Part shown: positions 890 through 63,890 of the stretch, in pieces
Position numbering within the stretch: the first letter of the stretch is position 1
How the letters are laid out: each line of letters starts with the position of its first letter
Program-made: the position numbers and the translations under genes
Assembly: GCA_030167865.1 (NCBI GenBank)
Contig: JALAGF010001205.1
Span: 62,001-126,000, forward strand
Reading direction: 5' to 3'
Source of the DNA: Craspedostauros australis
Lineage: Eukaryota
Length of the DNA stretch: 64,000 nt
The notes under the pieces: generated by a model
The model's database searches: none
What the model saw: only the letters and a program-made list of their open reading frames with translations
What the model was told of the DNA's origin: nothing

Positions 890-3800
890 ATGGACGACAT
901 CCTGGATGAGAATGTACCGATAACGCGGCGTGATCTGCTCTCCTCTATACACAATACACGTATCAACACGTACCAACACGCATCAACACGCATCGACATG
1001 CCTTCCGAACGCAAGAGCGAGATCGGGGAGGGCAGCGAGGCCACAGCCACCACATCCAGCCTGACGCTGCACGACTACTTGTCGCTGGGTGAGGTGCATC
1101 GTGGCTTGCAGGACTCCAACCACAAGGAGTCGGAGGAGATACAGAGGCTTCCATACCTCCTTCGACTCCTGTCCGCGACGCGATCGCACGACAGCGCCAC
1201 GAACGAGAACACGCACGACGGCAAGCAGCTGCTGCGGGACACTGTGGAGTCGTTGGAACAGGTCGCGGCGACGCATTCCGAGGCCGAAGCCGTGGAGGTG
1301 GTGGCATGTTACCTGGCGCCGCACGTCACGAAGAGGATATCTCGGTTACCGCGCGTCAAAGGCAAGACCAGCAAGGACAGCGCCGTTTGGTACGCATCGC
1401 AGCTCAAGGATGCTGCCAAGAATCCCGTATCGTCATCGAAGGACGCCTCGAAGGGCAAGAGCAAGCGGCAGAGGTTGGAGCAGGACGGTGGTGGCGGTGG
1501 TAGTGGTGGTGGTGGTAGTGGTGGCAGCCATGGCAAGGTTCAGTCGCATTCTACGGACGCAGGAAAGCAACCGTCGGCGGGGTCCAACGCAGGAGACAAC
1601 GACCATGGCGACTACAACGATAACGACAATGATCATGACAATGACGATGATTACGACGCATCATCGACGGGTGGTGAAAGCGATGGCGAGAATCAAGATT
1701 CGACCAACGCCGACGAGAAGGGTGCCGGATCACAAGCGGACAAAGGCAAGAGCCGCGCTCAAAAGGCATCCGCCAAGCGCAAGAGGCGTCGCTCAGAGTC
1801 CAGGACGGACAGCGGCGAAGCACAGGATTCCAAGGAGTCCATCGTCATCAAGACGCTGTCGGACCTGGCGAGCTTGGTGGCCAGTGCTCTCGCAAACGCA
1901 GACTCGATCAGCGCCCACAAGGATGGATCGTACTCGATCACGATGGAGGACTCCGTGCTTGCTGAATCATCCTCGGCTGATGCGGGCGACGGCACGGATG
2001 CTGCGTTCACCATTTCTTCGCTTCTGCATCATGCGCCCATCTTGCGGTCACGACACGTCGCTGTACGTTGCACAATCCTTCGCCAACAGAAGAATCTACT
2101 TGATGAGTGCGGTCTCGCGCGTGAACGACTGCTCATGTTATCGATATTTCATTCTGGGATTTTGAAGGAGGAGTCAATCTCTGTGGTTCACGTGTGTGTC
2201 ATATGCCATGTGCCATCCAGACTCTCACCGACCAATTTCTATTCTATTCAACGTCATCTCGTTGGATCATTCTTCCCAAATGCCTCCCCTCTCTCGCCGT
2301 TTCTCACCATATGTACATGCATCCGAAAAGATGGCGTTGTGCCGCACAGAGCTGCCTCAGATAGACCAGCTGCTCATGCAGATCGTCTCCAATTCGCCCA
2401 TTTCTATCAGTGGCATCATCTGCGGGTGCTTGGATGCGCATGCGCAGGCCAAACGTCTTCATGAAACAACGATCATGACCACCTCCAGCAACGCTCTGCG
2501 AACTATTGCCTCATTGTCGCCAACCGCCTGTTCCATGGTCCAGAATGCCGTCAACCAAACGAACGGGCGCGCCCTCCTTGCCCTGAGGCTGGAACTCTCC
2601 GCCATGAATGGCAATGCTGTCAATGTCGCAACCGCAGCCATTCACAATCTATCCAACCGTCACGACGGACAGCCCAGCAATGCGGTTGAATCAAACGATC
2701 CGTCGCCACCTGACAATCCCGAGGATCAGGATCAAGCTGTGTCAACAACTGACACCAGTGAACCGTCCATTCACAAAACACTCAGCGACAGCTCAGCTCT
2801 CGTCAAGTCCCTTCTCGCGTTGCTGCTGCAGGCGATTGCCGATGGCGTCGGGGATGGAGCGGAGATCAAAGCATCGCGCGGCGAGTTGTCGCTCCTGCTT
2901 CGAGGGTTTGGGTTGTTGCTGGTGCACGTGGGGAGCCAGCCGCTGCACGCACACAGCAGCAGCAGCAGCAACAACCGTGCGAATTACGCACCACCAATGG
3001 TTGGAATCGACTTCCTTCTCAAATTCCAAGGAATCATCGCCCACTTGACCAAATTGAACTGCGAGGCGACGCGGCTCATCGAGTTGGTGCTTGCTTGTGC
3101 CTCTCTCGCCTTTGCCGCCACCTTCTCAGCGGATTTGAAAACCAGCACCGAGAACGCCACGAGGATCATGGATGATGCATTGCAGCAACTTCACACCAAA
3201 TCGCGAGCATTGTGGATGCATTCAACTGGTGCACGATTTCTCTATTTCGGCCTGTTCCACACCAAGTACCCAGACATCAGCTTACTGGTTTTCAGGCGGT
3301 TGGTGAAAATACTGATCCCCCAACACAACGTCAGCAACACAGACGCGATGTTCGAATTATGGAAATCTGATTTCCCATCGCTGCGTCAAAATGTTGAGCA
3401 AGCAGGGCAAGATGATACCGACGGAAGTCTCCATGACTGTCTCGCATTGCAGCTGTCAATTGCACGGCGGGAACTCGAACAGCCTGCGAATGGGCAAACA
3501 GAGATGCATCAGCGTGTCTCCCCCGTGCTGAAGCATCTTCTATCATCTGCCATGACCATCGACATGTCACAAGCCGAAAAGGAATGGTTCCAACCAACGT
3601 TCGGCAGAGAAGTCACATCCTTCACTATTGAGGCAACCAACGCCCTGTTCAACGAAGAAGCGACCAAGGTCCCCATGGTGCTTCCGTTGGATGTGGACAC
3701 CTACTGGTATCACATGAATCCCTGCCAAGCCAAATCAGCCACGACGAAGGCAATGCAGATCGAGACATGCCATGCGTTGTTGCAGCTGCTCCATGCACTG

Positions 3801-5090
3801 CTGGTCCTTCGCAACCAACCGCGCTCACCATTCGCCATCGAACCTCACATGCTTCCCATCAACAGCATCGTGAACGCGTGCAAGTCGTTGCGAGGTTGCG
3901 ACGAATGGGCAATCCTCGCTGACGAAGTCTTAGGCCTCCTCGCGTCTATCTGTCCACATTCGGTGCAGCAGTATGATCGGTGGGAGCTCCTGACGCAGCA
4001 GACGTACTTTGATGCTGCTGCTGAGCTCCCGGGGGAGTTGTTGACGGCCAAGCATCTCGCATCAGCACTCAAGACTTCGCTGTCGGATGATCACGCCAGT
4101 GATATTTCCGATTCGCAACTTGAATGCATGTTCCTGAGATGCCGCATGGCTCAATCCGATCAGGCCGTGTGCGAAGCGCTCGCGAAAGTCTTCTTGGAGT
4201 ACCCGCGATCGTCTCTGCGTCACTACTCGTACTCGTTGCTGGTGAAAGATCCCATCGTGCTGCTCAAATGCTCCACCCGTATTTGGCGCCGATCCGGATT
4301 GCGCAGGCTGTGCGTGAGGGTGCTCATGATGCTCTGCGAAACGAACGAGACGCTGACGCTGCAAAAGTCGCCTTCACTCACGATCGCGCAGGAAATGATC
4401 GCCGCCAGGGATGACTTGCTGGTCCGGTGCCTGATCATCCTTCTCAGCGTTCCGCGTGACGATGGGCCTCCTATTCGATGCTCCCTGACACAGAGCTTCA
4501 TCCGATCGAAGATTGCGCAAAGACCCGGCATCGTGGCGGTCCTCGTCAAACAGGGGATGCAAGAAGACTGCGTGGATTGGATCGTCGCGCACGTGCCGGA
4601 ATCAATGCATGATCATCACGACCTAAGGATGCTGCTGTCGGATCAGAGCTCCTTGACGCCCGTTGAGAAGTTGGTTGCTGGAGATGCGGTGATGCGGATC
4701 GCCGTCGCTCACGGCGATGCCGATGACAAAGAGTCTGGCGCGCTGTGCTACGCCGCACTGTCGCAGCTGATCCAGTGCTTCTTCCTCATCCTGGGTCCCA
4801 TCGGCGTACCAGTCAACGCTCTGATTCGCGACGAAGGCGAGGATGTCACCCAAATCGCTCGCAAGGCAGCATTCCGAATCCTCCGTGCACTCCTCAAGGT
4901 GAGAGGTCCCCGCAAGCAGTTTCGCGCCGAGTGTGGCGGGCTCCTCAACAGGCTCTCGACGATGTGCAAGAGCGAGAACTTGTCCATGGGTCTTGGCGGT
5001 GCAGTGGCGGGAAGGCGCAAGATGCTCATCCGAGATCTGCACGAGGCGATCAGCCGGGCGGCATCCGCGTTGGGCCTCGTGCTTGCCTGA
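890..5090 (+). CDS. INTS2: Integrator complex subunit 2-like protein, 2 exons (890-2062, 2331-5090), ~1310 aa
   Basis: Intron 2063-2330 (GTACGT...AAAAG) joins RHVA|MALCRTELP in frame. Segments resembling INTS2 as I recall it: EIQRLPYLLRL; HVAMALC...LLMQIVSNSP; DPIVLLKCSTRIWRRSGL; MIAARDDLLVRCLI; IAQRPGIVAVLVKQG...IVAHVPESMH. The start codon is uncertain. Confidence 0.7.
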
Positions 5091-5543
5091 TCCGTGATAC
5101 TCGTACGCATGATAGAACATTTTGCGAGCACTCGGCCATGGCCTCTTCGACCATATAACCTCTCGTGATGTATGGTAGACTTGTGTCTAAGAGTTCAGTA
5201 TGATATCTACGAGTAGTTATGCCGTGTGCTTCTACTCCTATGCACTTTCGGTTTCCGCCATCATGTGTCCGCAGTCGTATTTGCCCAAGGGATGGGATAG
5301 CAGTGCGCAGCCGCTCTGTAGCGAGCATTCCAGATCTCGATCGTTCGTGTTGCATGGAGCTATTCAATGACTTCGAGCAACATGATAATGATTGAAGCAG
5401 ACACGGCAGAACTATTGAAACGAAACGCAAAAGTACTAGCGAGATGTTGGAACCCGTATCCTTTCTCTCTGTCTCTCTACTCGTCTCTTGTTCCGTAGTG
5501 GTAGTGGCAGTGAGTAGTAAAGTACTCTGGAGAGGAGAGGAGA

Positions 5544-11500: not shown

Positions 11501-13680
11501 GCAGATCGGTCGCAGCAACAACCTTCCTCTTGTTGCCCGTGCTTCCCATCTTCGTTTTCTCCTTGCGAACAGCAATCCCCAGCCATGTGGTTTGGTGTGA
11601 TCTACTGACATCCGAATCGATGAATGGGTTGCACAGGTACGGGCTGACGAGGCTTTGTCGTTTCGCCGCAAGGCCTAACGTCACTTCCCGACCCGCACAC
11701 TCGAGCTCACGAAGCTCGGCTTTCAGTTTCTCCACCTGCTCTCTCAGTGCCTTCTCCTTGGACGCGTCAGAACCATTCTCTCCCTTTCCGGCATCTCCCG
11801 AACCATCCTCCGTTGACTTGACGGATGAATTGTCGTCTGCTTGGAAGGACTTTCGGCGGCCACGTTCGCGGTTCAAGTGGAATGCATCCACCTTGTCCTT
11901 GGCATCGGCAAGGCTTTGGGCTCGCGACGCTTGCAAAGCATCCATGGCCATTGACACCATGACATCGTCCACGAGTCCCAGATACAGGAGCATGTTGCTC
12001 CACGCCTGTATGGGCGTGCCGCCAATCACGGACGTCACCTTCTTGCCATTTAGCTGCTGTAATCGGACGCTGCCGTGTTCATCCGTCTCATCCCCGGCGC
12101 CTATCGCGACACGCATGCATGGGGTTGAACGAAACGCAAGGTGGGGTCCGACATTTTCCAGCAGGGTAAGGCATGGCAAAGCATGGTAGATCACAGCAGA
12201 GAAGGGAGGCGTTAGTTGCGCTTATGCGTGCAGGTGCACAAAGTGCATACGTGGATGCGAAATAGGAGCAGGCTGGCGGAGCACGCGTGGCGAATGAAAA
12301 TAGCGCATTTCAAAGGGAAGCAACCAAGCAAGCAGAAATGATATCGATGCGGAACAAATGCAAGATGCTACAGCACAGGAGTATCATACTCGAAGCAGTA
12401 TGTGCGGATATGGTACAAGCACGCAGAATAGTAAACTCACCTGGCATTACCAAGCTGATGTCCGGATCGGGCAAAGTCGCTTGCTCTTGCGATCCGTCGT
12501 CGTACTGGATGACGATCTGCATGGATTTGGCAGTGGCGCTGCTGCTCTTTTTCTTGTCGCTGTCGGAAGTTTTGAGGATGGAGACGATCGCGCCATAAAA
12601 GTATTGATCCTTCTCGAATCGCGTCTTGACTCTCATTCCGACAGTTGGCAGTCGCTTCGATGGTTTGCTGGATGATGCTGCTGCTGATGATGACGACGAC
12701 GTTGGTGTGGGAGCCAGCGCGACGGTGTCCACGGTTCCCGCGGTCATGATGGGTGATGAATCCACGAAGGGATTGTACGGGAATTCCACGCTATCCTCGC
12801 TGGCGTCCACGCCAGGTCCCCACATGATTCGGAAGATCGGACCGGTCGGTATGTTCGGTGCCTTGTCCCCGAATATCGTCTTGTTGGACTGGCTGATGCG
12901 GGTGCCGTCCAGGATGGTGCATCGCACCTTGATGTTGCGGCCATGCGCCGGACAGAATTCTATCCGGTCGCAGGAAAAGCCGACGGGGTAAAGCGCGTTG
13001 GAGGTTGAGAACTTGGCTTTATCGTCTGGCTCTAGCTGCAGCTGTCCCATGGATCGCACTTTGAAGGTGTCTTTGATGTTGAGCGGTAGGCGAGTCACCT
13101 TTTGCGTGAGTGCCTGCCGCGCTTTGACAGCGGATTCCACACGACCCTTCGACACGCGGATGAAGTGCATGTCTGTCCCGCTTGAAGTGGCTGAGGCCGG
13201 CTTTGGCTTCTTTTTGACAGCCTTTTTCTTCGCCTTGAATGTGCTGCTGCCTGATTTTGAAGATGATGATGAGGAAGCCGCGGATGATTTGGACACAGTT
13301 CCGTTGGACCGTGGCATATCAGCTTTGGCGGACGCCGTTTTCTTCGACTTTTTGGCAGGTCCGGATTTGGAGGATGACGCAACTGAATTGGCCATTGCGT
13401 CGTCCTCGTCCTCGTCATCAATCGCTTCCGCAACACTGACAACATCTTCTGCATCGTCGTCGTCGTCGTCGTCGCCGGTACTGTCTATTCCGCCTATGCT
13501 GTGACCATTGGCAATTTCAATATCATCATCCTCATCCCCGTCGTCGTCCACCACAGTGGCCACGACGTCGGCAATATCAGCAACGTCTGCTTCGCTCATC
13601 GCACTGTCGTCGGCGTCAGAATCCATCGGTTCCGAAACGACCTCCATGATATCACCATCGTCTCCTGCGATACTGGGCAT
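5544..13680 (-). CDS. Large BAZ/MBD9-like chromatin protein (FYRN, Tudor, FYRC, coiled coil, DDT, bromodomain, PHD, WHIM, Tudor-knot), 2 exons (13680-12441, 12100-5544), ~2598 aa
   Basis: Intron 12440-12101 (GTGAGT...GATAG) joins MPG|AGDET in frame. FYRN: LYPVGFSCDR...VRCTILDG. Tudor: VGMRVKTRF..YFYGAIV..IVIQYDDG. FYRC: TPIQAW...LVEGLPGSEYCGTYVF. DDT: ILRIWDLITTFG. Bromodomain: AEPFIYPVDP..PGYYDMLLRPM. PHD: LLCDGC..LDPPLEDIPQGDWHCPRC. WHIM: IGRDALDRSYWKF. Tudor-knot: YRVRYEGWSSRFDEWV. Confidence 0.8.
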
Positions 13681-21501: not shown

Positions 21502-23867
21502 ATGAAGCGAAAGATAGTGAATGGCGTTCAGAGCGCAAGCAGCGGCGCTTCCGTGGTGTCGACCGACGAAGCTGGATCGGCAAGAGCTAATGCGAGCACC
21601 AGCGCGAACGGGAGCAAGAGCAAAGGCAAGAACGACCAATCCAGGGCGGATTACGTTCCGGACGAGTTCGTGCAGGCCTGCTTTTCCAACGTCTTGGGAG
21701 GCTGCATCGGGGGCAACGACCGCAAGATGGCGCGAGGTCAGACCTTCTGGATGAACGACAGCGATGGCGGCAGTTCTTCCTCCAGAGGCGGTGCGTCCAA
21801 CGAGACGGACGAGACAACGCACAAGGCGGACGTCGCGCTGGCCCAGGAGCTCAACCAGCTCTCCGTCAGCGAGCGACAGGATGTCTACGAGGACGTGCAC
21901 GGCATCTCGAATCGTTGCAAGGACGAGACGCCCGAATTGCTGCGCACCTCCATGCGGGGCGTGGAGACGGAGCTGCGCAAGGTGCCCACCACGGACGAGC
22001 GGAAGAAGGTCTACATCAAGGCCCTTTTCATCCGCCCCAGCTACTTCAAGTCGCACCTCTTCATCCTGCCCTTCCTGCGCGCCAACGAGTTCGATACCAA
22101 GCTCACAGCGCAGAGGATCCTCGACCATCTGCTCTTCCGCCATGAGCTCATGGGCTGGGACGGAGTCGTCGCCACCTACCTGCGCTACGATGAGCATCTC
22201 ACGCCAGGAGCCAAGCGTTACGTGCAGACGGGCCGTCTCCAGATTCTGCCCAAGCCTGATCGATCCGGACGCCCCATCATCCTCGCCTTCCCGAAGGTCC
22301 AGGCGCCCAACTACGACTACGTCGACGGCATCCTCGGTTACTGGTGGTTCTTCGACGCCATGCGCCAGCTCTTTGACACGCGCAAAGGCATCGTCATGGT
22401 GCTCTACGATTCCGGCATCCGCTTCCGTTCGGCGCAGCAAGAGGAGCTCGTCAAGAAGTACTACTTCAATGTTGATGGTCTCAAGGCCGCCACGCGCTTC
22501 CTGGCCAGCACGGCAATCTACATCTCCGCCTTTCACTGCTGTTTCGACAATCCCAAGCTGGCTGTCCCCATGGCGACCTTCCAGGCCGTCATCGGTCGGC
22601 GCGGTCGTGTGCGGTACCGCAACCATTGCGGTAAGTACTGCGCCTATCGCTGCTGCTGCTGCTATTGCTTCTGCTGCATTGTAACATACCCTTTCATCTC
22701 ATTGCTCACTTGACTCGCCAATCCTTTCCCATCGCAATCCCTTCATTGTTCTCTGCCAATACATGTGCGCACATTACACATCATGCAGCCTCGCCGATGG
22801 AAAGCATGTACACGCTCATGACGTTCGGCCTCGATATGAAGAACTTCCCGGTTGACGATGACGGCAACGTTCTGTTGGACAACTTCCTCAAGTGGCTGGA
22901 CCAACGTCGTCAGTCCGAAGCGGCGGAGCGTGAGTCCGACTCTCGCATCATCGAGCTGTCCGCGGAAGAAGTCCTGGCCAGCAAGAGCAAAAAGAAGGCC
23001 AAGAAGCAAACCGCGAAACCAGAACCTGCGCGCATCTGCCGCTACCCCAAGGCCAGAGACGTGCTGCTGGGCCGCGGACGGCCATTCCAGGAGCATCCCG
23101 GCAATCAAGAGCTCGCGGTCATCGTCGACGGGTACTGGGGCGCCTACCAGGAGTGCAACTGGAAGGAGAAGATGGAGCTCACCATCCAGATCGTGGAGCA
23201 GGTCAAGGGCAATGGCTTCCGATTCCTCAGAAAGCACGAACGACCTGCCGACGAGGAGGAGGGATTCCATTGGATCGAAGTCAACGACTCGAAGGCACGC
23301 GAGAAAGTCAGCCACGCATTCCGCAACAACACCGTCCAGCGCAAGGATGCCAAGAGCAAGGACGCTAAACGCTTGCCCACGATGCAATCTCCAGATGCGT
23401 CGCTGAATGATGAAATGGATCAGTTATCCCCACTGCCACAACAGCAGCAGCAGTCTCGCCAAATGAATGAGGCAGCAAATATCATCCCCACGCTGTCACC
23501 ATCACAATCAGGTCGTGTCACGCCCGTCATGTTGCAGTCGCCCTCCATCCAAACTGCCGAGGCACAAACACAGCATTTCATGGCAACGACCAGAGGGAAG
23601 AATGCTGCAGAAATTTCGCCGCCGTTGTCACCCACACGAGGATCATCGCCGTCATGTTCTTCGCAGAATCTTTCCACGACGAACGTGATCCTTGAAGATC
23701 AGGTGCAGACGATTTCGTACATGGATCAGGTGAATCTGAACCTGAACTCTGTCGACCTCATGACACCGAACGCATTCGCGATGACGACACGTCCCGATCC
23801 TCGCATGAGCATCGTGTCAGTGCAGGATTTGGATGCGTTGGATATCCTCAACGACGACGTTGAGTAA
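21502..23867 (+). CDS. CRAL-TRIO-like plus DUF6824 domain protein (diatom-expanded family), 2 exons (21502-22630, 22789-23867), ~735 aa
   Basis: Intron 22631-22788 (GTAAGT...TGCAG) is in frame. Family motifs: LAQELNQLSVSERQDVYEDVHG, FLRANEFD, QILPKPDRSGRPII, RVRYRNHC.SPMESMYTLMTFG. DUF6824: DVLLGRGRPFQEHPGN...RFLRK...WIEVNDSKAREKVSHAFRN. Confidence 0.85.
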
Positions 23868-37500: not shown

Positions 37501-38063
37501 TTTGGTTATGGTCGTAATCATGGTCACGGTCACGGCATTTACCCATGTGAATGTTGAAGGTTGAAGATTGCGATTCAGAAGATGACGAATGGCAAGGTTA
37601 GTATGATCCAGTACTCGCCATGCACGAAAGGGCGGGTGGACAGCCCAACCCTCGTAATCACATTATGATCCACAAGCACAGTCCATCTGCATGTCCATTC
37701 ACGAATCTAGTCATCCAAGTAACACTCCAACTCAGTTCGACTCACATCAGCTCACCCCAGATCAAGCCCATCACACAATGAAAGCACTCACTAATCCACA
37801 AGGAATTGCAAAAAGGCTTGCCGCACCAATTCCCCACTCTCATCCACAATTGTGAATTCCGCCACACCATCCGCCGCAGCGCCCATGATTGCGGCATCGC
37901 CATCCATGTTGCGTCCTCGTGCCGTCGTGGCTGCGGTTGCTTCTTCCGTATTCATTGCGGCGACTTCAGCTGCCGTGGCCTCATTCGTTAAATTGTCGTC
38001 GCCGCCACCATCGTGGTGGGGCGGCAACTCTGGCGGTGGCATATCCTCGTCTCCGTACTCCAT
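34526..38063 (-). CDS. MCM6: DNA replication licensing factor MCM6, 3 exons (38063-37792, 37475-36314, 36106-34526), ~1004 aa
   Basis: Introns 37791-37476 and 36313-36107 are both GT-AG and in frame. Zn finger CNKC...CRNPRC, FVDWQKLRVQE..IPPGSMPRS, GVRELTYRLCF, Walker A GDPSTAKSQFL, IDEFDKM, SRFD, AYRITVRQLESMVRLSEA, and C-terminal VHPNY. Confidence 0.95.
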
Positions 38064-39699: not shown

Positions 39700-41504
39700 A
39701 TGCAGTTCCAGTACAACTCAGACTACCCGGGCGTTTCTGGTTCCCATGCCCCAGCTGGCACTCCTGCACTATCCTTGGCGTCCAGTCCCAGGGACTTCCC
39801 CTCAGCGCAACCCATACCCTGTGCCAGAATCACCACCCGAATATTCCACCCCAGCCGCAACCAAGTGGCGACGGTCCAGAACGTGCTCGTTCGCACCATG
39901 GTCAATCCGCAGATGCAGCGACGTGGTTCCAACTCCTCCATGAGCAGCAACGGATCCTTCTCTTCCTCATCCTCCTCCGATCTCAGCATGAACATGGAGG
40001 ACCCGAACGCGGGCGGAGGTGCGTCCGATGGATCGCAACCAATCGAGAATGCCTACTGGATACAAAGGACCATCCGCGAAGCCATCTACGGACGCGTTCT
40101 GTTCGCGGTGGTGCTGAAGAAACGACCGCGTGCCGTCAGCGCCACGGATGGTGTTGAATGGGAGGTCACTAACGATCATTGCGCCGTCAAAGAAATGTCG
40201 TGGCAGCACATCCGCAAAGAGCGCGATCGGTTGGCGGAGGATCCCATCAAGGAGGTCTCAGCCATGCAGTATCTCAAGAAGTGGTTCCACGACAACACGC
40301 GTCCCAAACGATCCCCCACCATCTCGCGCGAGGAAAATGCCACGCTCAACAACAACCTCACGCAATCGTTTCACGCCATGAAAATCACGAACATCATGAT
40401 GCCGCTGGATCTTCTGTCGGATGAGCGCAATCTGTACAGCATCATGCCATACTGCGATGGCGGGGAGCTGTTTGAAAGGTTGGATATGAACGAACGGTTC
40501 TCTGAAGGCGAAGCACGGTATTGGATGGATCAAGTATTGAATGTGAGTACTTTGCCATGATCTGCTGGCCGTAGGGTTGTGTTGATATGAAGCAGCCTAC
40601 GTGTTCACATTCTATTCTTTGTGATAACAAGGGTAAAGCTTGTGGCGCTGTCGCAAGTTGTCGCCAACACGAACAACCTGGTAGACGCAACGACTCACCT
40701 ATTGTTTGACTGTATCACACGCTGTGATGGCATTGCGATCTCAACAACATGGGCGGCACTCACGATGCTGGCAATGCATTGGGGAACGAATGGTTTGGCG
40801 TTCATGCAAATTCAAACGCAAACGCGATTTCCGTGCGCACATACGCATACCGATGCGCACACCCATACTTGTACGCATATGCATGACACCAGGGCCTGGA
40901 AACGTTGCAACACAGCGGCATATGTCATCGTGACATGAGTTTGGAGAATTTGCTCGTCCACCAGGACAGAGCGCTCATCATTGACATGGGTATGTGCCTG
41001 CTGGTGCCGTACCAAGACGCCACAGCGGGAATCGCAGCGTCATTGCAAAGCACGAATATCAGCGGCACGGGATCCCCCGTCGCGCCAGGCAGCGCACCCG
41101 TATCTGGCCGAGGACGACCTCGGCACCTCATCCAACCGCAGGGCACTTGCGGTAAGTGGATTTACATGTCACCGGAGATTTACTCCAACGGTGCGCCCTT
41201 CGATGCCTACGCCGTGGATATGTGGGCCGCCGGCGTCATCCTGTTCTTGATGTTAACTGGATTCCCTCCGTGGGAACGCGCCTGTCAGACCGATGAACGT
41301 TTCAAATACATGACGGCCGGGTACCTCGTGCAGATGCTGACGGAATGGGAGGTCGGTCTGAGCAGCGATGCGATGGATCTGTTGCAAAGGATGCTGTTCT
41401 TAGATCCCAAGGACAGGCTGAGCTTGGATCAGGTTCGTGCGCATCCCTGGATGGTCAATGGTCCCAGACAGGCACCGCAGCCAACACCGGGCATCCAAGG
41501 ATAG
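39700..41504 (+). CDS. Ser/Thr protein kinase (CAMK-like fold, HRDMSLEN type), 2 exons (39700-40542, 40893-41504), ~484 aa
   Basis: Intron 40543-40892 (GTGAGT...ACCAG) gives VLN|GLETLQH. Motifs: AIYGRV, CAVKEM, EDPIKEV, PYCDGGELF, HRDMSLEN, IIDMG, CGKWIYMSPE, DMWAAGVILF, DPKDRL. Confidence 0.9.
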
Positions 41505-42147: not shown

Positions 42148-44454
42148 TCAATTGTAGGGATACAACGCCCGTTGGACAGCTTCGTAGTGATCCTTCGGGA
42201 TGCTTTCTTCGACATTTCCTTGGACGATCTTCCAGTTGGATGAGTCGAGACAGATCCAGTCGGTGGAATCGAAGACTTGCACGCTGTCCGTCTCCGAGGC
42301 CAACGACTTATCGTGTGAGCTTGCCTTCCCCAGAAGGGAGGTAGGCGCAGTTGGGAATGGCGACATTGGAGGTGGTGTATCTCTGCCATTGACATCCTCT
42401 TCTTCTTGCCGTGCTTCTTCCGGAGCCAACGCTGCACGAGTAGCGATGTTCGCTGCCTTCCCACCGCTTGGGATTTGGCGTGCCAGAGATGCAGCCTTTT
42501 CATGCACGTCCGGGAGTGCCACCATCGATGCACCATCGAGACCCTTCTCTGAGATGTCTTCTTCAATCTCATCCTCGGTGTTGGGCTCCTCGTCTTCGTC
42601 CGGGGCTTCGAGCTCAGATGTTGAGATGATATCGTCATCCCATTCTGATCCCTGCCCGCTTGTGTCTTCTCCCGTCATGGAATCAAGCGTGTCGTCCTCG
42701 CCTTCAGATTCGTATCCCAGATCCGACGAAGTGATCAATGTTCTGGCCTGGATGAATGGGCCCGTTGGCGACGCTGGCCGTTGCTCGAGGCAAAGCTCTG
42801 CTTGGGGCACCGACTGCAGCTCCGACTGTGGCTGCGTTTGCGTAGTTGTCTGTTCCTGTGGTTGTATCTGCGGCTGAATGTGACGTCTGAGGACATCGTT
42901 GGCGTACTCGATAAAGAATTTGAAATCAGAGTCTTCGTCGTCCTCCCCGATCTTCATTGCGGCGTTGTCAAAGCGAAAGAATGAATGCGCAATGAATGTG
43001 CAATTGGGTTTTGAAACAAGGCAAATAGCGCAGATGAGAACAAGATGAAGGTGAGTTGGGGAATAAAGGATGTCGGGCGGTATGAAGGATCAGCGTCATC
43101 GTTATCACCATTATCATCATCAACAACAACAACAACAACAACAACAACAACGACAAAGTAATCAACTTACATCGGTCGTTGCACCAGCCTTCATCATGTT
43201 GCTGAGCTCTTCCGAAATGATCTGATTGCTTACATTGATCTCCGGTAGCTTGACCTCGGTTGTGTCTTGGTGCAGGGCCTCGCTGACGCCCTCCTTGCGA
43301 AGCTTCGTCCATGCCTCCCGCATGCGTTCCAACTGACGGTCAGAGGAAGAGCACTCTTCACGCATGGCTTTCTCCAGCGACTGGTACTCCTCCGTGTGGT
43401 GCGACAGCTTGGGGCCAGCTGGTGCGGATGTTGCGTTCGGCTCGTCGTTGATGATGAGCATCATGCCCTTGGGAGTGGTGGCGATTGTGTTGGTATTGCT
43501 GTGGATGAAACCGTTGCCGTCTTCCATGAGAGCGTAGAGTCTGTTCCAACGATCGAAGTCGATGAACGCTTGTGCGGCGGCATCCATGTCACCTTGGTCA
43601 ATGATCGTGGAAATGTCATCCATGGCACCACGCACGATAGCGTTGCCGCGTGTCATGAGCGCGAACAGCAATGGCAGGGAGGATTGGTCCTCCGTACTAG
43701 TGGATTTGTCTTGAGTGGCATCGTCATTTCTTGGTGCTGTTGTCGTCGTCATGGTCGAAGGCATCTTTGCCAGGGATGTGAGTGCTGTCTTCTGGGCCGT
43801 GACCTTCTCCTCCTCTGCCTCCTCTTGTCCCTCTTCTGGGCCTTGCGCATCGTCTTGATCCTGCTGCTGCTGTGGTTCTTGCTTCAGGTCAGAATCCAAT
43901 CCTGATTCTGGCTGTTGTTCTGGTTCTGGTTCCTTCCAGTCTTGAGCTTGCCAGCCTTCTTGTGGAATGGTATTGGTATTGGTATTGGTATTGGTGTTGA
44001 CGTTGCCGTCAACGTCGGCCATGGTGTTAGCGAAGGCGAATCCATCGGTAAGGGCATCCAGCTCGTCGGCTGGAAACAGTGGAACATCTTCCATCACGTC
44101 CTGACTATCACCATCCGACGGCGCAGAGGGCGCACACATGAGATTTCCATCGAGGCGGTTGTCGTTCGTGGCACTTGGACTCACGTCGTCGTACGGCGTG
44201 GGAGACGACGTATCGGATGAGGTGTGGAGCCCGCTGACGGAGGTGAAGGAGCCGGACCGGACCGAGGTTGCTGACATGGCGTTGGTCTTGCTGCGGTGCT
44301 GGCCTTCGCGCATCAGCGAACGGAACGCGGCTGGATCACCGGTGAGATGGCCGGATCCTGCGCTCGCATCAAGCACATTGTACTTTTTGGAATGGTGCTC
44401 GGAGGCGCCGCGCGGGGTGTGCTCCACAGCGTGGGTGGATGTGCAGTTTCCCAT
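42148..44454 (-). CDS. Putatively N-acylated (MGNCTS) acidic protein with a split, degenerate hemerythrin-like helical domain, 2 exons (44454-43171, 42951-42148), ~695 aa
   Basis: Intron 43170-42952 (GTAAGT...TGAAG) joins ATTD|IGED in frame. Helical segments: LLFALMTRGNAIVRGAMDDI...WNRLYALMEDG...PKGMMLII, FKFFIEYANDVLRRH, VQVFD...NWKIVQGNVEESIPKDHYEAVQRAL. The domain call is tentative. Confidence 0.65.
43121..43150. repeat. (CAA)10 microsatellite inside an intron
   Basis: Read directly; reads (TTG)10 on the transcribed strand near the 5' end of intron 43170-42952. Confidence 0.9.
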
Positions 44455-45521: not shown

Positions 45522-47949
45522 ATGGCAGGTGACGGCAAGAAAGGAGGCGCAGAAGCGAAGCCAGCACGAGAATGGACACCCGAATTGCAGGCCGACTTTG
45601 ATCGAATCCTGAGCGTGGGCGAGGAATGCATCTCGGCCGATTCGCTGAAGAAGCTGCTGCTGGCCAAAGGACGCGGGTCGGAGAACCAGCACGGCATCAA
45701 CTTGTACGATGGATTCGAACCCAGCGGCCGCATGCACATCGCGCAGGGCGTCTTCAAGGCCGTCAACGTCAACAAGTGCACTGCGGAGGGCAGCAACACC
45801 ACCTTCATCTTCTGGGTGGCCGATTGGTTCGCGCTCATGAACGACAAGATGGGCGGCGATCTGGACAAGATCAAGACGGTCGGTCTCTACCTCATGGAGG
45901 TCTGGAAGGCGGCCGGCATGAACCTCTCGCACGTCGTCTTCAAGTGGAGCTCAGAGGAGATCACCAACAATGCGGACGCCTACTGGCCCAAGATGCTCGA
46001 CATCGCGCGTCGGTTCAACATCACGCGCATCAAGAAGTGCTGCCAGATCATGGGGCGGTTGGAGGGATCCCTCACCGCGGCGCAGATCCTCTACCCCATC
46101 ATGCAGTGCACCGACGTCTTCTTCCTCAGGGCGGACATCTGCCAGCTGGGTGTCGACCAGCGCAAGGTCAACATGCTGGCCCGTGACTACTGCGATGCTG
46201 CCAAGCAAAAGAACAAGCCCGTCATCCTCAGCCATCACATGCTCTACGGGCTCAAGGCGGGTCAGGAGAAGATGTCCAAGTCCGATCCTGATTCCGCCGT
46301 CTTCATGGAGGACTCGGCGGAAGATGTGGAGCGCAAGATCATGAATGCCTACTGCCCCACCGAGCCTCAGAAGAAGACGGAGGACAAGGCCGCCGCGGGC
46401 GATGCCGGCAAGGAGTCCATGCACCTCACGGAGGACACGCTCAAGAATCCATGCTTGGATTACATCGAGAACATCATCTTTGCCCCGCCAGGTGCCACCT
46501 TCACTATCGGGGACACCACCTACACTGAATACGCGACCGTCAAGGAGAAGTTCATCGCAGGCGATATTCCGGAGGAGGACCTGAAGCGTGCTTTGATCCG
46601 GGAGCTCAACGTGTTGCTGGCACCAGTGCGCGATCACTTCACCAACGACGAGAATGCGAAGAATCTGCTTGCGCTCGTGCAGAAGTACAAGAAGGAAGCC
46701 ATGCCGAAGGACAAGGCCATCCAGCGCCTGAATTTGGTCGCCCTGAACAAGGTGCAAGCGCAGAGCCATGTTGTCTTCGCACCCTTGCCATCCTCCAATC
46801 AAACCCTGCAGGATGCCGTGGAGACGCTCAAGTTGCTGCACGAATCCAACGACAAGCCATGCGTCCTCTACCTGTCGGACTGGTCCGCCATTGTGCGCAA
46901 CGCCTGCGGGTCGGAACCAAAGCACATCAACGCATCCTACTCCATCTTCCTCAGCGCATTGAAGGCCCTCGATCCAGCTAAGATGGAGAATGTCGCGATC
47001 CTGAAGCAAAGCGAAGCCATCCTGGCCGATCCCTCCAATTACTGGATCAGCGTCATCAACGTCGGCAGACACTTCATGCTCAACGACGTCATGGGTTCCG
47101 CAATGAAGGATTCCGACAACGCCGGCATCGTCGTGGCGCGCTTGATGCAGGTCGCCGACGCGGCTGGATTGGAAGCCTCCAGCATCGCCATGATCGAAGG
47201 CGATGAGACCACGGTCATGCAGGATCTCATCACCAAGTTCTTTGATGCCAAATTGACAGGCGTGACCAAGCCGGAAATTTCTGTCGTCCAAGCCACCTCC
47301 CTCGTCTTGCAGCAGAGAGAATCGGAGGCCCACAAGCAGGACAATGATGAGTACTTTCTTCTGGATGATCCCAAGGTACGTTTGCGTTTGCTCTTATTTT
47401 TGTTTGGCCGTGTGCACGTGTGCGTGCTGTTGAGCTAGCTATCCGTACCGCATTGGTTTAGATCCGTGTCATACGCACATCTCACCCTCTGCGATTCTCA
47501 CAAACGCGCTTTTACCTTTTCATTTCCATCCGATGTAAACCAATCCAATTCAATGTTTTATTCGTCATCCATGTCCCATCCAATGCAACGCACAGGCCCA
47601 CGGCAAGTCCAAACTCAAAAAGGCCTTCTGCGAACCAGGCAACATTGGATTCTGCCCACCCATCACCCTGGCCTCCACCTTCTTCTTTGACTTGGCCAAA
47701 TCCGAGATGAAGATTTCACGTTCCGAAGCGGATGGAGGGGAAATCGTGTTCCGCACCAAGGCCGAGATCGAGGCCGCATTCGCCAATGAATCGGTGCATC
47801 CAGGTGATCTGAAGGCCGCCGTGATGGGACTGATGGTGGAGACCATCACCAAGATATCGACCGCCATCAAGGCCGAACCAGACCTGGTCAAGGCATCGAA
47901 GGCAATGAAGACGTTGCACAAGAATTTGATGAAGCGCAAGAAGAAATAG
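45522..47949 (+). CDS. TyrRS: Tyrosyl-tRNA synthetase, cytosolic double-length (pseudo-dimer) type, 2 exons (45522-47375, 47596-47949), ~735 aa
   Basis: YDGFEPSGRMHIAQG, ADWFALMNDK, YPIMQCTDVFFL..DICQLGVDQRKVNMLAR, KMSKSDPDSA. A degenerate second half follows (LSDWSA, NYWISVINVGR, KLKKAFCEPGN, VHPGDLK). Intron 47376-47595 (GTACGT...CACAG) is in frame. Confidence 0.93.
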
Positions 47950-48073
47950 AGCGGAGCGGACGGAGTTCGCTCTGCTCTTATCTACCACATTGACTGTTCG
48001 AGTATGTACCGAATCATACTAGAGTATTGTATTGCGCTGTATCACACAGTATTCTACACTATTATACGTTCTA

Positions 48074-56500: not shown

Positions 56501-59143
56501 ATGAAATTGAGCGTCGGTTTGTTCCTCACGGTGGTCTCCACCAACTGCATCGCATACAACGATGCCTTCACCACAATCCCACGGCAGCACCATTCCGTGC
56601 AATCCTTCGTGCCAATTCGTGCGTCGACCTTGGAAGATGTGGATAAGGTACGGCAAGACAACACAAGACAAGGCAGCCGAGGGAATCACACGCAGCATGA
56701 CATGGCCAATTGGAGGCGCGCTTCATTCGCTCTGTTGTTGTTGCCACGTTGCTCACACTCTATCTGTTTCGCATTTCATCGCCTTTTCCACTCATCCATT
56801 CATTCATCCATTCCTTGAATTTGGTGTCGTATTGCGCGGTACGTCATGCCATGCCACATGATACTCGAACCATGCGATATCATATGATGCCAATATCATG
56901 CCCAGAAACGCATGACGCATGAAGATGGAGACGTGCTGTTCGGAGGTGTGACCACTGGCAGCACCAGTGTTGGACGCAGCAAGCGAACGAGCAACGGGAA
57001 CAACAAAAAGAGGAACAAAGTGCCCATGAATCCATTGGATCGCTCCAACGATCCTCTCATCAATGAGTTGCACACCATCCGCAATGAGGTGGCATCGTGT
57101 CCAGATATTTGGACCACGGTGTCGAAGGCATGCCCCAACAAGAAGGCGTTGCTCGATGAACACTTGTGCGACAAGGTCATCGACGTCACCTTCCAACAGA
57201 TGAATGACATTGTCACAAGGAGCGCCATCGCCTTCACCAAATTGGGCGTCCAACCCGGCACGAACGTCGCCATCCTCGGCGAGAATTCGGCGCGTTGGTT
57301 GATGGCCGATCATGGCATCCAGCGTGCTGGTGCGTCGTCCGCCGTGCGCGGTGCCGATGCTCCCCTTGATGAATTGCGGTACATCTACGAGCATTCCGAC
57401 AGCGCCGGGATCGTCGTGTTGCAAGATCCGCGGTTGCTGCAGAAATTGATCAAGGATGCGCAGGCCAAGGGCATGGGGGGATTGGGTCTGTCCAACCAGG
57501 CTCAGGGCGCCGTGCGTCATGTCGTCCTGATCAACCAAGGCAAGAAGCACACGAAGGAGGATCTCGAGACCATGACGCTTGGCATGGGGGTGAAGGTCCA
57601 CATTTTGGCGGACATGATCGACGGTGTCACCGACGAGGACATGGACTCTGCGCAGCTCCCAACCCTGCAGCACGAGGATCTGGCCACCATCGTCTACACC
57701 TCCGGCACCACGGGCAGCCCGAAGGGCGTCATGCTCACGCACGGCAACATCCTGCACCAGCTCTCGCATCGTCTCAATCCCACCATGCAATACGAGGACG
57801 GAGAGCCAGTCCCCGACGAGACCATGGTCTCCATCCTACCCGTCTGGCACATCACCGAACGCACCTTCGAACTGTGGATGCTGGCACGCGGCTGCCGCGT
57901 CGTCTATTCCTCCATCCGCACCCTGAAGAAGGACATGGCCAAGCACAAGCCAGAATGGATGGTGCTCGTGCCACGCGTTCTGGAAAAGATCGCGTCGGGC
58001 GTGCAAGACAAATTCGCCTCGGGCAGCGCCGTCGTGCAGGCCCTGTCGAGCTTCTTCACCAAGACCGGCAGCCTGCGCGCCAAGCACACCAAGGTGTCGC
58101 AAGGCCTCGTCGTGGGCGACCAGGCGCCCAACCGGCTGCGCCGCATCGTCAGCAAGTCCATCGTGGCGGCATTGGCTCCCCTCAATGCAGTCGGCGACAA
58201 GCTCGTGTGGACCAAGGTGCGCGACGGGTTTGGTGGCAACTTGCGCATGATCATCGCGGGCGGCAGCGCGCTGTCGGGGTCGCTGGAATCCTTTTACGAG
58301 ACGTGCGGATTGACGGTCTCGGTGGGGTACGGGCTGACCGAGTGCTCACCGCTGCTGTCGTTCCGTCGCACCGACGAGAATCTGGTGACGGCAGGATGCG
58401 TCGGCAAACCGACGTTCGATACGGAAGTCAGGGTGGTCGATCCCGAGCGCGCGGTGAGCGATGACGAAGAGCGTCCCGCCCTGCCGGTCGGCGAAGTCGG
58501 TGTTGTGGTGGGACGCGGTCCGCAGGTGATGAAGGGATACTACAAGAATGTCGAAGCCACGAACAAGGCGGTGGATCGGTTCGGATGGTTCGACACGGGT
58601 GATCTGGGTCGCATCAATCCCGTCACGGGCGACCTGATCCTCACGGGTCGCGCCAAGGACACCATCGTCCTGTCGAACGGCGAGAACATCGAGCCGCAGC
58701 CCATCGAGGATGAGATCCTGTCCCAAATCCCCATGATCGACCAGATCATGCTGACGGGGCAGGACGGACGTCGATTGTGCGCCGTTCTGACGTTGAGCCC
58801 AAACGAACTTGCCAGCACGGGGTACGTGTCGCGAGCAGACGTGGATGCACTGCAGCAGGCCAGCGAAACGGTGAATGATCCGAAATGCAGCCAGGAGGAT
58901 TGCGCGGAGAATGCGTCAGTGCTGCAGGCCGCATCTACCAAGCTGCGCGACAATGCGGAGCTGCAGAAGTTCTTGCAGAGCGCCGTGAAGGAAGCCACGC
59001 AGAGCTTCCGCCAGTGGGAGCAGGTGAGTAGCATCTACGTGACGCTGGAGCCGTTCGCCATGGCGAATGGATTGCTGACGCAGAGTTACAAGGTGAAGCG
59101 CGACGCGGTGTTGCAGCGGTACGAAGCCGAGCTGCCGAAGTAG
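56501..59143 (+). CDS. Plastid-targeted long-chain acyl-activating enzyme (acyl-CoA/acyl-ACP synthetase, AAE15-like), 2 exons (56501-56647, 56906-59143), ~794 aa
   Basis: Exon 1 encodes the signal peptide MKLSVGLFLTVVSTNCIAYNDA-FTT. Intron 56648-56905 (GTACGG...CCCAG) is in frame. Motifs: YTSGTTGSPKGVMLTHGN, LPVWHITER, GYGLTE, WFDTGDLG, GRAKDTIVLSNGENIEPQPIE. Confidence 0.9.
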
Positions 59144-61493: not shown

Positions 61494-61538
61494 CAGTATC
61501 TACAGCGACAGCATCTACAACGACAGTATCTACAACAA
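61494..61538. repeat. Three tandem imperfect 15-nt units (CAGTATCTACARCRA-like)
   Basis: cagtatctacagcga / cagcatctacaacga / cagtatctacaacaa, upstream of PP2C. Confidence 0.75.
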
Positions 61539-61898: not shown

Positions 61899-63754
61899 AT
61901 GGCACCGTTTCGAAGAGGAAGGAGCGCAGCACCGTCAGACGCATCCGAGTCATCATCGTCAGCCGCGACGCCGTCCCCATCCCCACAGAAGGGACGCATG
62001 CAGTCCGCATGGGACAGACGCCAAAGACGGAAGGCGAAGAAGTCAACCTCCTCCTCAGCATCCGAGTCATCAGATTCCAACGCGCCCAAATCGAGACGAA
62101 AAGTCAAGCTTCCGGATGATGAATGCGATCCGTACGATTCCGACCCAGGCGAGTCCTACCGCGATCACTGCATGCGAGTCAAAGGCTTCAACACGAGGAG
62201 CTGCCTCGTCATGCCCAAGTTCCTCAGAGGCGCCAACGCCACCACCAGCAGCAAGGGTGGGGAGAGCGACACGGAGGCCACGACCCCACCATCGCCGCTG
62301 GCATCAGAAGCGGACGATTTCATGGGAAGCACGCCGGCTGCGCTCGCGAGGGACATCACCAGAGTGCGCTACTCGTTGAGAACATCGATCGGGGATGGCT
62401 CCGAGAAGCAGCCGGAGGGGCCCACGGTCATGGAACGCCGCCAGCTGCGGCCCAACAACATTCATATCAACGTCAGTCACTGGAGTGACACGGGCTGCAG
62501 GAATTACATGGAAGACAGGTGAGTGTATGCGTGTGCCACGTGCAACGTGCAATGTACCCATACGTACATACATATCCCGTTTCATATCTCTGCTGCCCAA
62601 GCGAAACCAATGTCAAACCAAGGTCGCTCTGGTTTAATCCCTCGTTGAATCAATCACTTGCTCTACTCTGCGTACTCTGCCCGTCAACGATCATCTCACA
62701 TGAACCATCCATCTACTCTTTTCTCCGCTCCACTCCACTCTGTCGGATTTTCTGCTCCAATCAACCATCACTGCGTCACTACACGATGATGCTACACAAC
62801 GCCATGCGATACCACACAACACCCATTCAACTCGTACACACTATACTCTACGCAGATATTCAATTGAGGACATGGGCGCTGTGCAGGTAGAGATCAGTCC
62901 TGTGGCTGTGCGCAACCCAACGGAGGCCGACGCAGGGGTGGAGGTCACCTTTGGCAACCGCAAGAACAGACGTCTCAAGATGCCGCTCACATGGGTCGGT
63001 GTCTACGATGGTCACGGGGGAGAGAAGGCGAGCCAGTACTGCGCGGACTGGCTGTCATCGTACGTGCGCAACGAGGAGGCGTATCCCTTCGATCTGGGCT
63101 ACGCCATGAAGAATGCATTCAACGCCATTGACGAAGACTTTGTCGCCACCGGCAATCCAGACGGCTCAACGTCGTGCGCCGTCACATTGGTGGGAGGCAG
63201 ACGGATCGTGTGCGCCAACGCGGGAGATTCCAGAGCCATCGTGGTGCGACGGGACGGAACCGTGGTCAGGCTCAGCCGAGATCACAAGCCCGGAATGCCA
63301 GACGAGACGAGGAGAATATCAGACCTGGGCGGTCGCGTCATCTATTGGGGTCGATGGCGCGTCGAGGGATTGCTGGCCGTGTCACGCAGCGTTGGCGATG
63401 CCTCGCTCAAACCCTACGTCACGGCAGAGCCAGAGGTCTGCGAGTACGACATCGGAAAGGATGATTGGTTCCTCATATTATCATCAGATGGTATCTGGGA
63501 TGTCATGGACAACGAAGAGGCGGCGCATGTCGTCATCGCATCATCGTGCGTCATGGAGGACGGCAAGCTGCAGATCGACACCAACCGGTTCAAGTGGGCA
63601 GCCAGAAATCTTTGTGAACATGCCAAGTAAGTCCATCAATCTCTCGCAAGCTATGCGCAACAAACACAGCACTACCCCGCATTTCAACTTGATTCGACTC
63701 ATCTCACACCCCTCGCCTTTCCATTCATTCTTGCGCTACTTCCATCACCCTTCC

Positions 63755-63785
<31 letters not shown>

Positions 63786-63890
63786 CGACAACACAGATCC
63801 TGCGGTTCAACAGACAACTTCTCTGTCATTGTGGTGGACCTCAAGAGCTGCGGTAACCCAGCCGCAAGATCTGGACGATACGAACCATGA
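61899..63890 (+). CDS. PP2C/PPM protein phosphatase, 3 exons (61899-62518, 62856-63626, 63797-63890), ~494 aa
   Basis: GCRNYMEDR, VGVYDGHGG, DGSTSC, ANAGDSRA, LSRDHKP, LAVSRSVGD, LILSSDGIWDV, GSTDNFSVIVVDL. Introns 62519-62855 and 63627-63796 are GT-AG and frame-preserving. Confidence 0.93.
63756..63785. repeat. (CAA)10 microsatellite next to a 3' splice site
   Basis: Read directly; ends 9 nt before the acceptor AG (63795-63796) of PP2C intron 2. Confidence 0.9.

Follow-up and report, generated by a model that had tools for sequence, protein, structure and literature searches.

How the 3' splice site is found is the question raised by the introns in a 64 kb stretch of genomic DNA from the raphid pennate diatom Craspedostauros australis (assembly GCA_030167865.1, contig JALAGF010001205.1, positions 62,001 to 126,000 of the forward strand; hereafter the window, with all positions counted from its first nucleotide). 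The 12 introns of this one locus, rebuilt from reading frames, donor motifs and homology, all end in a long zone without a single AG dinucleotide, and motifs resembling a branch site lie far upstream of the acceptor. In a preliminary description of this DNA, a distant branch point followed by scanning to the first AG had been proposed as the default mode of splicing. After analysis of the AG-free zones, the intron junctions, the candidate branch motifs and the composition of the 3' part, we conclude that these are probably ordinary U2-type GT-AG introns with a 3' half built like the rare mammalian class of distant branch points. As judged from the sequence, it is rather likely that branch and pyrimidine tract are recognised far upstream, that the first AG serves as acceptor, and that the spacer between them is kept free of AG by selection.

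The AG-free zone before the acceptor is at least 80 nt long in all 12 introns, at least 100 nt in 11 and at least 150 nt in five, and the individual lengths reported in the preliminary description proved exact (Table 1; mean 149 nt); in the gene for a DUF6824 protein the zone is the entire intron past the donor. For the whole window, gaps of at least 80 nt account for 136 of the 7005 AG-to-AG gaps (1.9%). When the intron interiors were subjected to mononucleotide shuffling (5000 shuffles per intron), the observed zone was reached in 0-2.9% of the shuffles (Fisher combined P 4e-20), and the crowding of AG into the 5' part, given the AG count of each intron, gave a combined P of 1.4e-8. In the pooled zones (1788 nt) AG is found 0 times against 60.7 expected, while GA, with identical base content, is found 60 times against 60.7 expected, and this control rules out depletion of purines or of G as the cause of the zones. 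The 5' parts of the introns (1188 nt) carry 54 AG against 63.7 expected (observed/expected 0.85). Comparable AG-free runs in shuffled introns, which the preliminary description had named as evidence that would overturn its proposal, were rare. After comparison of all 16 dinucleotides for the length of the run before the acceptor from which each is missing, AG gave the longest run (mean 149 nt), followed at a distance by GG (97 nt), with GA at 19 nt; the observed/expected ratio of GG is 0.58 in the 5' parts and 0.61 in the zones, indicating that the scarcity of GG is not specific to the zones. The effect is also confined to the interval next to the acceptor: the mean length is 149 nt for the first AG-free interval upstream of it and 24.9 nt for the second, which exists in 10 introns, the other two being without an upstream AG.

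The intron models agree with canonical U2-type GT-AG introns in GT..AG termini (12 of 12), GTRAGT-like donors and frame-restoring junctions. Their length is 158-350 nt (mean 256 nt), the donors are GTGAGT (five), GTAAGT (three), GTACGT (two), GTGAGC (one) and GTACGG (one), and position -3 of the acceptor is C in eight introns, A in three, T in one and G in none. Nine of the 12 junctions are backed by homology or by a Pfam profile, and four of these, the junctions of the INTS2-like gene, the TyrRS gene and both introns of MCM6, are fixed exactly by gap-free alignment to orthologues or a PDB sequence. At the INTS2-like junction 2062|2331, five of 14 homologues stop at 2062 and restart at 2334 in tblastn, with one residue between, and at the TyrRS junction all seven diatom orthologues align to 47375/47378 and restart at 47587, P0002 without gap. 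The junction of MCM6 intron 1, which holds nine AG within its first 178 nt, fits the orthologues P0156 and P0142; the alignment of MCM6 exon 3 with yeast Mcm6 begins at the first exon residue, opposite residue 529, and P0124 crosses the intron 2 junction gap-free. Continuity of a Pfam profile backs the junctions of VPS33, the protein kinase and both PP2C introns: the Sec1 profile is covered from 39 to 235 in the upstream open reading frame (ORF) of VPS33 and from 242 to 575 in the downstream ORF; the Pkinase profile is covered from 50 to 109 upstream and from 113 to 152 and 155 to 263 downstream, with fitting spacing of the HRD motif; splicing of PP2C intron 1 joins ..YMEDR to YSIEDM.., with the PP2C profile beginning at position 28 in exon 2; and removal of PP2C intron 2 restores the C-terminal GSTDNFSVIVVDL motif of PP2C. 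For the hemerythrin-like gene the sole homologue, P0001, spans both exons and fits the junction within ~3 residues. In the BAZ-like gene, for which the preliminary description gave no donor coordinates, the donor at 12440 was chosen in the present analysis, and no FYRC domain linking the two BAZ exons was found by profile scan. The exon upstream of the intron in the AMP-binding enzyme gene (acyl-activating enzyme, AAE) is a signal-peptide-like first exon.

As candidates for the branch site we searched for the pentamer CTNAC, which was found in all 12 zones and in none of the intron 5' parts, the corresponding mean for dinucleotide shuffles being 6.9 zones (P 3e-4). Its position within the zone is also non-random: the first CTNAC lies at most 22 nt from the zone start in seven of the 10 introns that are informative (1.5 in dinucleotide shuffles; P<3e-4), and its median position in the zone is 15.5 nt against 86 nt in the shuffles. 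Outside the intron ends the window contains 119 further AG-free runs of at least 80 nt, of which 26 contain CTNAC and eight contain it at most 22 nt from the start (Fisher P against the zones 8.5e-8 and 3.4e-5, respectively). All 11 motifs named in the preliminary description were recovered at the positions and distances given there (Table 1). Its statement that in five introns no more than ~10 nt separate the motif from the start of the zone holds for four of these 11 motifs, those of BAZ (offset 3 nt), VPS33 (0), MCM6 intron 1 (10) and the kinase (7), and reaches five with the CTCTCAC of the INTS2-like intron (1), which had not been listed. In the conventional branch window (A at -50 to -10) seven of the 12 introns have no YTNAY, and a single CTNAC is present in 564 nt. 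After scoring for pairing with U2 of the yeast/human type, only AACTAAC, TACTGAC and TACTAAC stand out.

The claim that pyrimidines follow the motif rather than the AG was confirmed, since pyrimidines make up 71.7% of the 25 nt after the motif against 52.0% of the last 25 nt of the intron. The excess after the motif over the acceptor end is present in all 12 introns (Wilcoxon P 0.0005), and a gradient is detected independently of any motif, the first 80 nt of the zone being 65% pyrimidine and the last 40 nt 57% (P 0.01). The last 25 nt contain 34% A against 21% in the remaining zone (12 of 12 introns), together with 23% T, and the pyrimidine-rich last 20-25 nt of a conventional U2AF-type 3' splice site were not found in these 12 introns. 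No stabilising RNA structure was predicted between motif and acceptor (z -0.87 to +1.49, mean +0.16, 200 dinucleotide shuffles each), and the predicted minimum free energy is -0.11 kcal per nt from motif to acceptor against -0.23 in the 5' parts. There is hence no signal of an RNA structure that bridges the distance as in yeast, and none of the 12 introns has a silent AG to be masked in the stretch from motif to acceptor. An introner or transposon family was also rejected: the best match in all-against-all blastn (word size 7) is 16 nt long (E 0.013), and the introns share no sequence, so that the AG-free pattern is not inherited from a common element.

The introns are compositionally two-part, with an AG-containing 5' segment of 25.3% G and 52% pyrimidine and a 3' zone of 14.5% G, and the boundary between the G-rich and G-poor segments coincides with the candidate branch motif. 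Two zones contain AG-free microsatellites, (GTT)n at 43150-43120(-), which opens the hemerythrin-like intron, and (AAC)n at 63757-63790(+), directly before the acceptor of PP2C intron 2. A second short motif, the pentamer TTCAT (often as TTTCATT or CATTCATTC), occurs in 11 of the 12 introns, its 20 copies comparing with an expectation of 5.2 by mononucleotide shuffling (for example at 36160-36140(-), 47520-47530(+) and 56770-56800(+)). It is found on either side of the zone start and can therefore not be just the branch site; possible roles are those of an intronic enhancer or a component of the pyrimidine tracts.

The arrangement proposed for these introns would start with a branch site of the CTNAC type, ranging from TACTAAC to NNCTCAC, at 76-195 nt (median 107 nt) upstream of the acceptor, with a pyrimidine-rich tract directly behind it. 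A G-poor, unstructured spacer turning A-rich toward its end would follow, and the acceptor would be the first AG met downstream of the branch. A new AG in the spacer would be taken as acceptor in error and would for this reason be eliminated by selection, leaving an AG-exclusion zone of 80-231 nt, the 5' edge of which would mark the most upstream branch site in use. Microsatellites would be tolerated in such a zone only if their repeats are free of AG. We infer, rather than observe, that CTNAC is the branch, that step 1 is independent of AG, that the AG is located by linear search, and that this mode is the default throughout the genome.

The observations that weigh against a distant branch point are best considered together with the other explanations. 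The 119 AG-free runs outside the intron ends are located in coding-antisense, coding-sense and intergenic DNA, and for some of them 6-8 AG are expected; a long run by itself is therefore no intron marker. The (GTT)n and (AAC)n microsatellites take up part of two zones, and GG-free runs before the acceptor are long as well. One could regard the AG-free runs, in particular with reference to those in coding-antisense and intergenic DNA, as a chance by-product of G-poor, CA/AT-rich non-coding DNA and of microsatellites, unrelated to splicing, but we consider this very improbable in view of GA at its expectation where AG is absent, the low probability obtained by shuffling, the equal rarity of GG in both parts of the introns, and the presence of a long run at 12 of 12 acceptors against 1.9% of the AGs of the window. 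If the true acceptors were other AGs, the zones could be an effect of how the acceptors were picked. Candidates for such an error are the junctions of BAZ, DUF6824 and AAE, for which reading frame and canonical signals only are the basis and homology support is lacking, and the hemerythrin-like intron, in which an in-frame GAG 9 nt downstream is a possible alternative acceptor. With four junctions fixed exactly by orthologue or PDB alignments, four others backed by profile continuity, and no AG upstream within a zone by definition, an artefact of the gene models is hardly credible.

Further difficulties concern the branch itself. CTNAC is not enriched in total number within the zones (16 against 12.0 expected, P 0.14); the eight CTCAC-type heptamers (U2-pairing score 4-4.5 where listed) pair with U2 no better than other heptamers of the same introns, and CGCTGAC (4.0) is outscored by another heptamer of MCM6 intron 2; the zones of the DUF6824 and hemerythrin-like genes begin at the donor, and the motif follows 67 and 108 nt later, respectively. 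YTNAY is present with its A at -50 to -10 in five of the 12 introns, including CTCAY at a conventional distance in two, the INTS2-like intron with TTCTCAC at -24 and MCM6 intron 2 with TCATCTCAT at -32. These motifs, the unremarkable U2-pairing of the CTCAC type and the low G content of the zones would fit branches that are conventional in position, 10-50 nt from the acceptor, but degenerate in sequence, the zone then reflecting a wider avoidance, by selection, of competing AGs: with no pyrimidine tract to mark the true AG, the choice of acceptor would be loose, and the G-poor 3' half would add to the effect. We hold this to be unlikely, since YTNAY is missing from the conventional window in seven introns and its density there is 0.016 per nt against 0.034 in the remaining zone, and since neither the clustering of CTNAC at the zone start, nor the pyrimidine tract behind CTNAC, nor the return of AG to normal frequency immediately upstream would be explained. 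In a variant of the distant-branch-point explanation, several branches are used along each zone, which starts at the most upstream one, and typical distances are shorter. Two CTNAC in four of the 12 zones, CTNAT in several more, and the intron-enriched TTCAT, which fits yUnAy, are in its favour; however, TTCAT is also located upstream of AGs in four introns, where it would be unusable as a branch under the first-AG rule, and the pyrimidine peak lies behind the first motif, making this variant rather improbable.

As for the proposed default, all the predictions of a distant branch with first-AG scanning that could be tested on the sequence of the window were borne out, namely AG-specific depletion in the 3' part, normal AG upstream, CTNAC at the 5' edge of the zone and a pyrimidine tract behind the motif, whereas the small sample, 12 introns from one locus, weighs against its extension to a general rule. 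If the window is representative, such introns would make up more than ~78% at the 95% level (0.05^(1/12) from 12 of 12). We tentatively suggest, as a real possibility, that the distant-branch-point mode is constitutive splicing in this diatom, possibly in raphid pennates or in diatoms at large. In this mode the branch site and the pyrimidine tract would be read as one unit at a distance of at least ~100 nt from the acceptor, step 1 would not require the AG, and exon ligation would follow a long-range search through the AG-free, A-rich, unstructured spacer. If true, the rare regulated exception of animals and the structure-dependent exception of yeast would here be the rule, and the implication would be that U2AF35-type AG recognition and the second-step factors are used in an altered way.

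The search for the 3' splice site after branch choice is debated between linear scanning, distance-limited diffusion and RNA structure, and yeast and mammals seem not to be alike in this respect. A lineage with a branch-like signal ~80-200 nt from nearly every acceptor, and with a clean, unstructured spacer between them, would be a natural test bed for this search, and would inform on the use of U2AF, SF1 and second-step factors outside animals and fungi. For annotation, gene finders that expect a pyrimidine tract beside the AG may mis-annotate diatom genes, and the AG-exclusion rule would be a simple predictor of both acceptors and branch sites; the ~900-residue INTS2-like homologues that start at the methionine behind the intron could be a trace of first exons missed in this way. 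Searches of the openly licensed PMC and bioRxiv literature brought up nothing on branch points, lariats or AG exclusion zones for diatoms or other algae among the stramenopiles, and the accessible text of the Phatr3 paper gives only the number of introns and their mean length, 142 bp. What would be new is the distant-branch-point architecture as default and not as exception, the architecture itself being already known.

Table 1. Introns of the window and their candidate branch motifs (distances in nt from the branch A, or from the motif where no A is named, to the 3' end of the intron; offsets from the start of the AG-free zone).
Feature	Position	Strand	Description
INTS2-like intron	2063..2330	+	268 nt, GTACGT..AAG; AG-free zone 2221-2328 (108 nt)
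CTCTCAC, INTS2-like	2222..2228	+	candidate branch, A 103 nt from 3' end, offset 1 nt
TTCTCAC, INTS2-like, second motif	2301-2307	+	24 nt from 3' end
BAZ-like intron	12101..12440	-	340 nt, GTGAGT..TAG; AG-free zone 12220-12103 (118 nt); phase-1 donor agrees with acceptor phase
AACTAAC, BAZ-like	12211..12217	-	candidate branch, A 111 nt from 3' end, offset 3 nt; U2-pairing 5/6
DUF6824-gene intron	22631..22788	+	158 nt, GTAAGT..CAG; AG-free zone 22636-22786 (151 nt); frame-consistent
TGCTCAC, DUF6824 gene	22703..22709	+	candidate branch, A 80 nt from 3' end
VPS33/Sec1 intron	25359..25585	-	227 nt, GTGAGT..AAG; AG-free zone 25440-25361 (80 nt)
TACTGAC, VPS33	25434..25440	-	candidate branch, A 76 nt from 3' end, right behind last AG; U2-pairing 5.5/6
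MCM6 intron 1	37476..37791	-	316 nt, GTGAGT..CAG; AG-free zone 37613-37478 (136 nt)
TACTAAC, MCM6 intron 1	37597..37603	-	candidate branch, A 122 nt from 3' end, offset 10 nt; U2-pairing 6/6
MCM6 intron 2	36107..36313	-	207 nt, GTGAGC..CAG; AG-free zone 36209-36109 (101 nt)
CGCTGAC, MCM6 intron 2	36185..36191	-	candidate branch, A 79 nt from 3' end
ATCTCAT, MCM6 intron 2, alternative		-	A 32 nt from 3' end
Protein kinase intron	40543..40892	+	350 nt, GTGAGT..CAG; AG-free zone 40685-40890 (206 nt)
GACTCAC, kinase	40692..40698	+	candidate branch, A 195 nt from 3' end, offset 7 nt
CACTCAC, kinase, second motif		+	130 nt from 3' end
Hemerythrin-like gene intron	42952..43170	-	219 nt, GTAAGT..AAG; AG-free zone 43165-42954 (212 nt)
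AACTCAC, hemerythrin-like	43051..43057	-	candidate branch, A 100 nt from 3' end
TyrRS intron	47376..47595	+	220 nt, GTACGT..CAG; AG-free zone 47462-47593 (132 nt)
ATCTCAC, TyrRS	47479..47485	+	candidate branch, A 111 nt from 3' end, offset 17 nt
TTCTCAC, TyrRS, second motif		+	95 nt from 3' end
AMP-binding (acyl-activating, AAE) enzyme intron	56648..56905	+	258 nt, GTACGG..CAG; AG-free zone 56716-56903 (188 nt)
TGCTCAC, AAE	56750..56756	+	candidate branch, A 150 nt from 3' end
PP2C intron 1	62519..62855	+	337 nt, GTGAGT..CAG; AG-free zone 62623-62853 (231 nt)
ATCTCAC, PP2C intron 1	62693..62699	+	candidate branch, A 157 nt from 3' end
PP2C intron 2	63627..63796	+	170 nt, GTAAGT..CAG; AG-free zone 63670-63794 (125 nt)
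ATCTCAC, PP2C intron 2	63701..63707	+	candidate branch, A 90 nt from 3' end

The window has a G+C content of 54.7%, is markedly depleted of TA, and is densely packed with eukaryotic genes (~21 probable genes), 10 of which hold all 12 introns. Genes recognised by Pfam code for the BAZ-like chromatin protein (bromodomain, PHD, WSD, MSL3-chromo and FYRN), PRP6, an EXS protein, the DUF6824 protein, VPS33/Sec1, a metallophosphoesterase, IGPS, MCM6, the protein kinase, a double-length TyrRS, SIR2, the AMP-binding enzyme, dynactin p22 and PP2C. In the Pfam scan of the window exons there was no match to hemerythrin and none to INTS2. The only basis for the name INTS2 is a weak, below-cutoff Pfam match (E 2e-4) in one homologue, P0252, the profile scan of INTS2-like exon 1 in its correct frame (893-2062) giving no match, and for exon 1 of the hemerythrin-like gene a single relative was detected in the word-index search. 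Within the 64 kb, nothing was found by Rfam at the gathering threshold or by ARAGORN. The window contains no gene for U2AF, SF1, SLU7 or PRP18. One splicing factor of the tri-snRNP, PRP6, is encoded in it, by a single exon at 15176-18493(+) with PRP1_N and HAT/TPR repeats; the open frame of PRP6 runs ~200 codons upstream of the conserved N-terminal domain, and the true start is for this reason probably 15590 or 15689.

The TyrRS gene, 45522-47940(+), encodes a double-length protein of ~734 residues over two exons, with the class I catalytic profile in the first half only and a KLKKAFCEPGN-type motif retained in the second half; the diatom relatives listed are all 600-900 residues long as well. 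A pseudo-dimeric TyrRS occurs in trypanosomatids. The closest relative of TyrRS exon 1 (81% identical) is a transcriptome record with taxid 265584, Stauroneis constricta, a raphid pennate diatom, followed at 66-74% by Bacillariaceae, Cylindrotheca, Nitzschia, Pseudo-nitzschia and Chaetoceros. Of nine single-exon proteins of the window that were compared with the protein collection for exact identity, none had an identical entry. Exon 2 of the INTS2-like gene opens with an ATG at 2331(+), directly behind the acceptor, and among its homologues (including P0242, P0243 and P0264) several of ~900 residues begin at this methionine, while others, of 1215-1429 residues, span exon 1 too; the shorter ones may be gene models that lack the first exon. 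Codon usage gave non-coding scores for the beginnings of two ORFs, ~240 codons in that of the kinase (38884-39607(+)) and ~120 codons in that of PP2C (61779-62136(+)), suggesting that the true starts, or additional 5' introns, lie elsewhere.

No additional convincing intron was detected in the window by donor scan, motif scan or codon usage, introns in untranslated regions (UTRs) being beyond the reach of these scans. The scan for a donor, CTNAC and an AG-free run of at least 70 nt gave 23 candidates, the 12 known introns and 11 others. Candidates from the donor scan at 50.9-53.8 kb are by eye single-exon genes (bL17m, a small minus-strand gene and SIR2), and in-frame candidates in SIR2, AAE and the hemerythrin-like gene are contradicted by the open frame or by Pfam coverage. 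The codon-usage scan of 29 exons gave low scores mostly at N-termini and no clear non-coding island inside. Upstream of the TyrRS and INTS2-like coding regions we noted sense-strand AG-free runs at 45055-45201(+) and 380-490(+), with 10 and 13 GA, respectively, and 8 AG expected; these could be AG-free zones of 5' UTR introns, and no strong donor with CTNAC was found for them in the donor/CTNAC/AG-free scan. The segment 60280-61778, examined on both strands, lies between dynactin p22 (-) and PP2C (+) and carries minus-strand AG-free runs of 273, 101 and 81 nt; an ORF within it, 60812-61447(-), was judged non-coding in appearance, and the segment may be the p22 5' UTR or a UTR intron, or merely T/C/G-rich promoter DNA.

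At a conventional 3' splice site the branch lies ~20-40 nt from the acceptor and the pyrimidine tract abuts the AG. The introns described here agree with conventional introns in GT-AG termini, GTRAGT donors and the YAG-type acceptor (C at -3 in eight of 12), but differ at the 3' splice site, where pyrimidines make up 52% and A 34% of the last 25 nt and the pyrimidine tract is located ~100 nt upstream. In trypanosomatids, with their polycistronic transcripts, trans-splicing uses as acceptor the first AG that follows a pyrimidine tract, with the branch still further upstream; the likeness to the diatom layout (upstream tract, first AG) may serve as a lead only. Irimia and Roy (2008; PLoS Genet 4:e1000148) reported a conventional 3' architecture for animals, plants, apicomplexans and Phytophthora, and the legend of figure 6 in that paper describes for T. 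pseudonana a 'relatively uniform polyT distribution', like fungi and unlike the 3' polyT tail of Phytophthora. This agrees with the missing 3' pyrimidine tract in the introns of the window, yet it is a different finding, and within the accessible text of the literature that legend is the only published hint we found of diatom introns without a 3' pyrimidine tail.

For S. cerevisiae, the median distance between branch and acceptor is 31 nt, with 22 introns above 60 nt (NAR 2011;39:9759, PMC3239191), and such distant-branch introns, for example those of COF1 and UBC13, rely on a stem by which the distance is reduced and silent AGs are concealed (PMC3239191). The introns of this diatom share with them an intron-poor genome, some motifs of the UACUAAC type, and a distance from candidate branch to acceptor well above the usual, but lack both AGs in need of masking and a predicted structure (mean z +0.16). 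For human, Gooding et al. (2006; Genome Biol 7:R1) found a zone of at least 100 nt at 838 of 67,334 exons, and estimated a distant branch point in 1 in 160 to 1 in 400 introns, a class tied to alternative splicing; the scanning model goes back to Smith et al. 1989/1993, as cited in Gooding et al. (2006). The hallmarks of verified distant branches listed in that paper are a long AG exclusion zone, the 5' end of which holds branch and pyrimidine tract, and an AG frequency that is normal upstream, with TACTAAC at -214 within a 220 nt zone as an example. The diatom introns resemble these mammalian exons in the long AG-free zone, the motif and pyrimidine tract at its 5' end, the normal AG upstream and the use of the first downstream AG; unlike the small mammalian minority, 11 of 12 have zones of at least 100 nt, and they belong to housekeeping genes and are short, at 158-350 nt.

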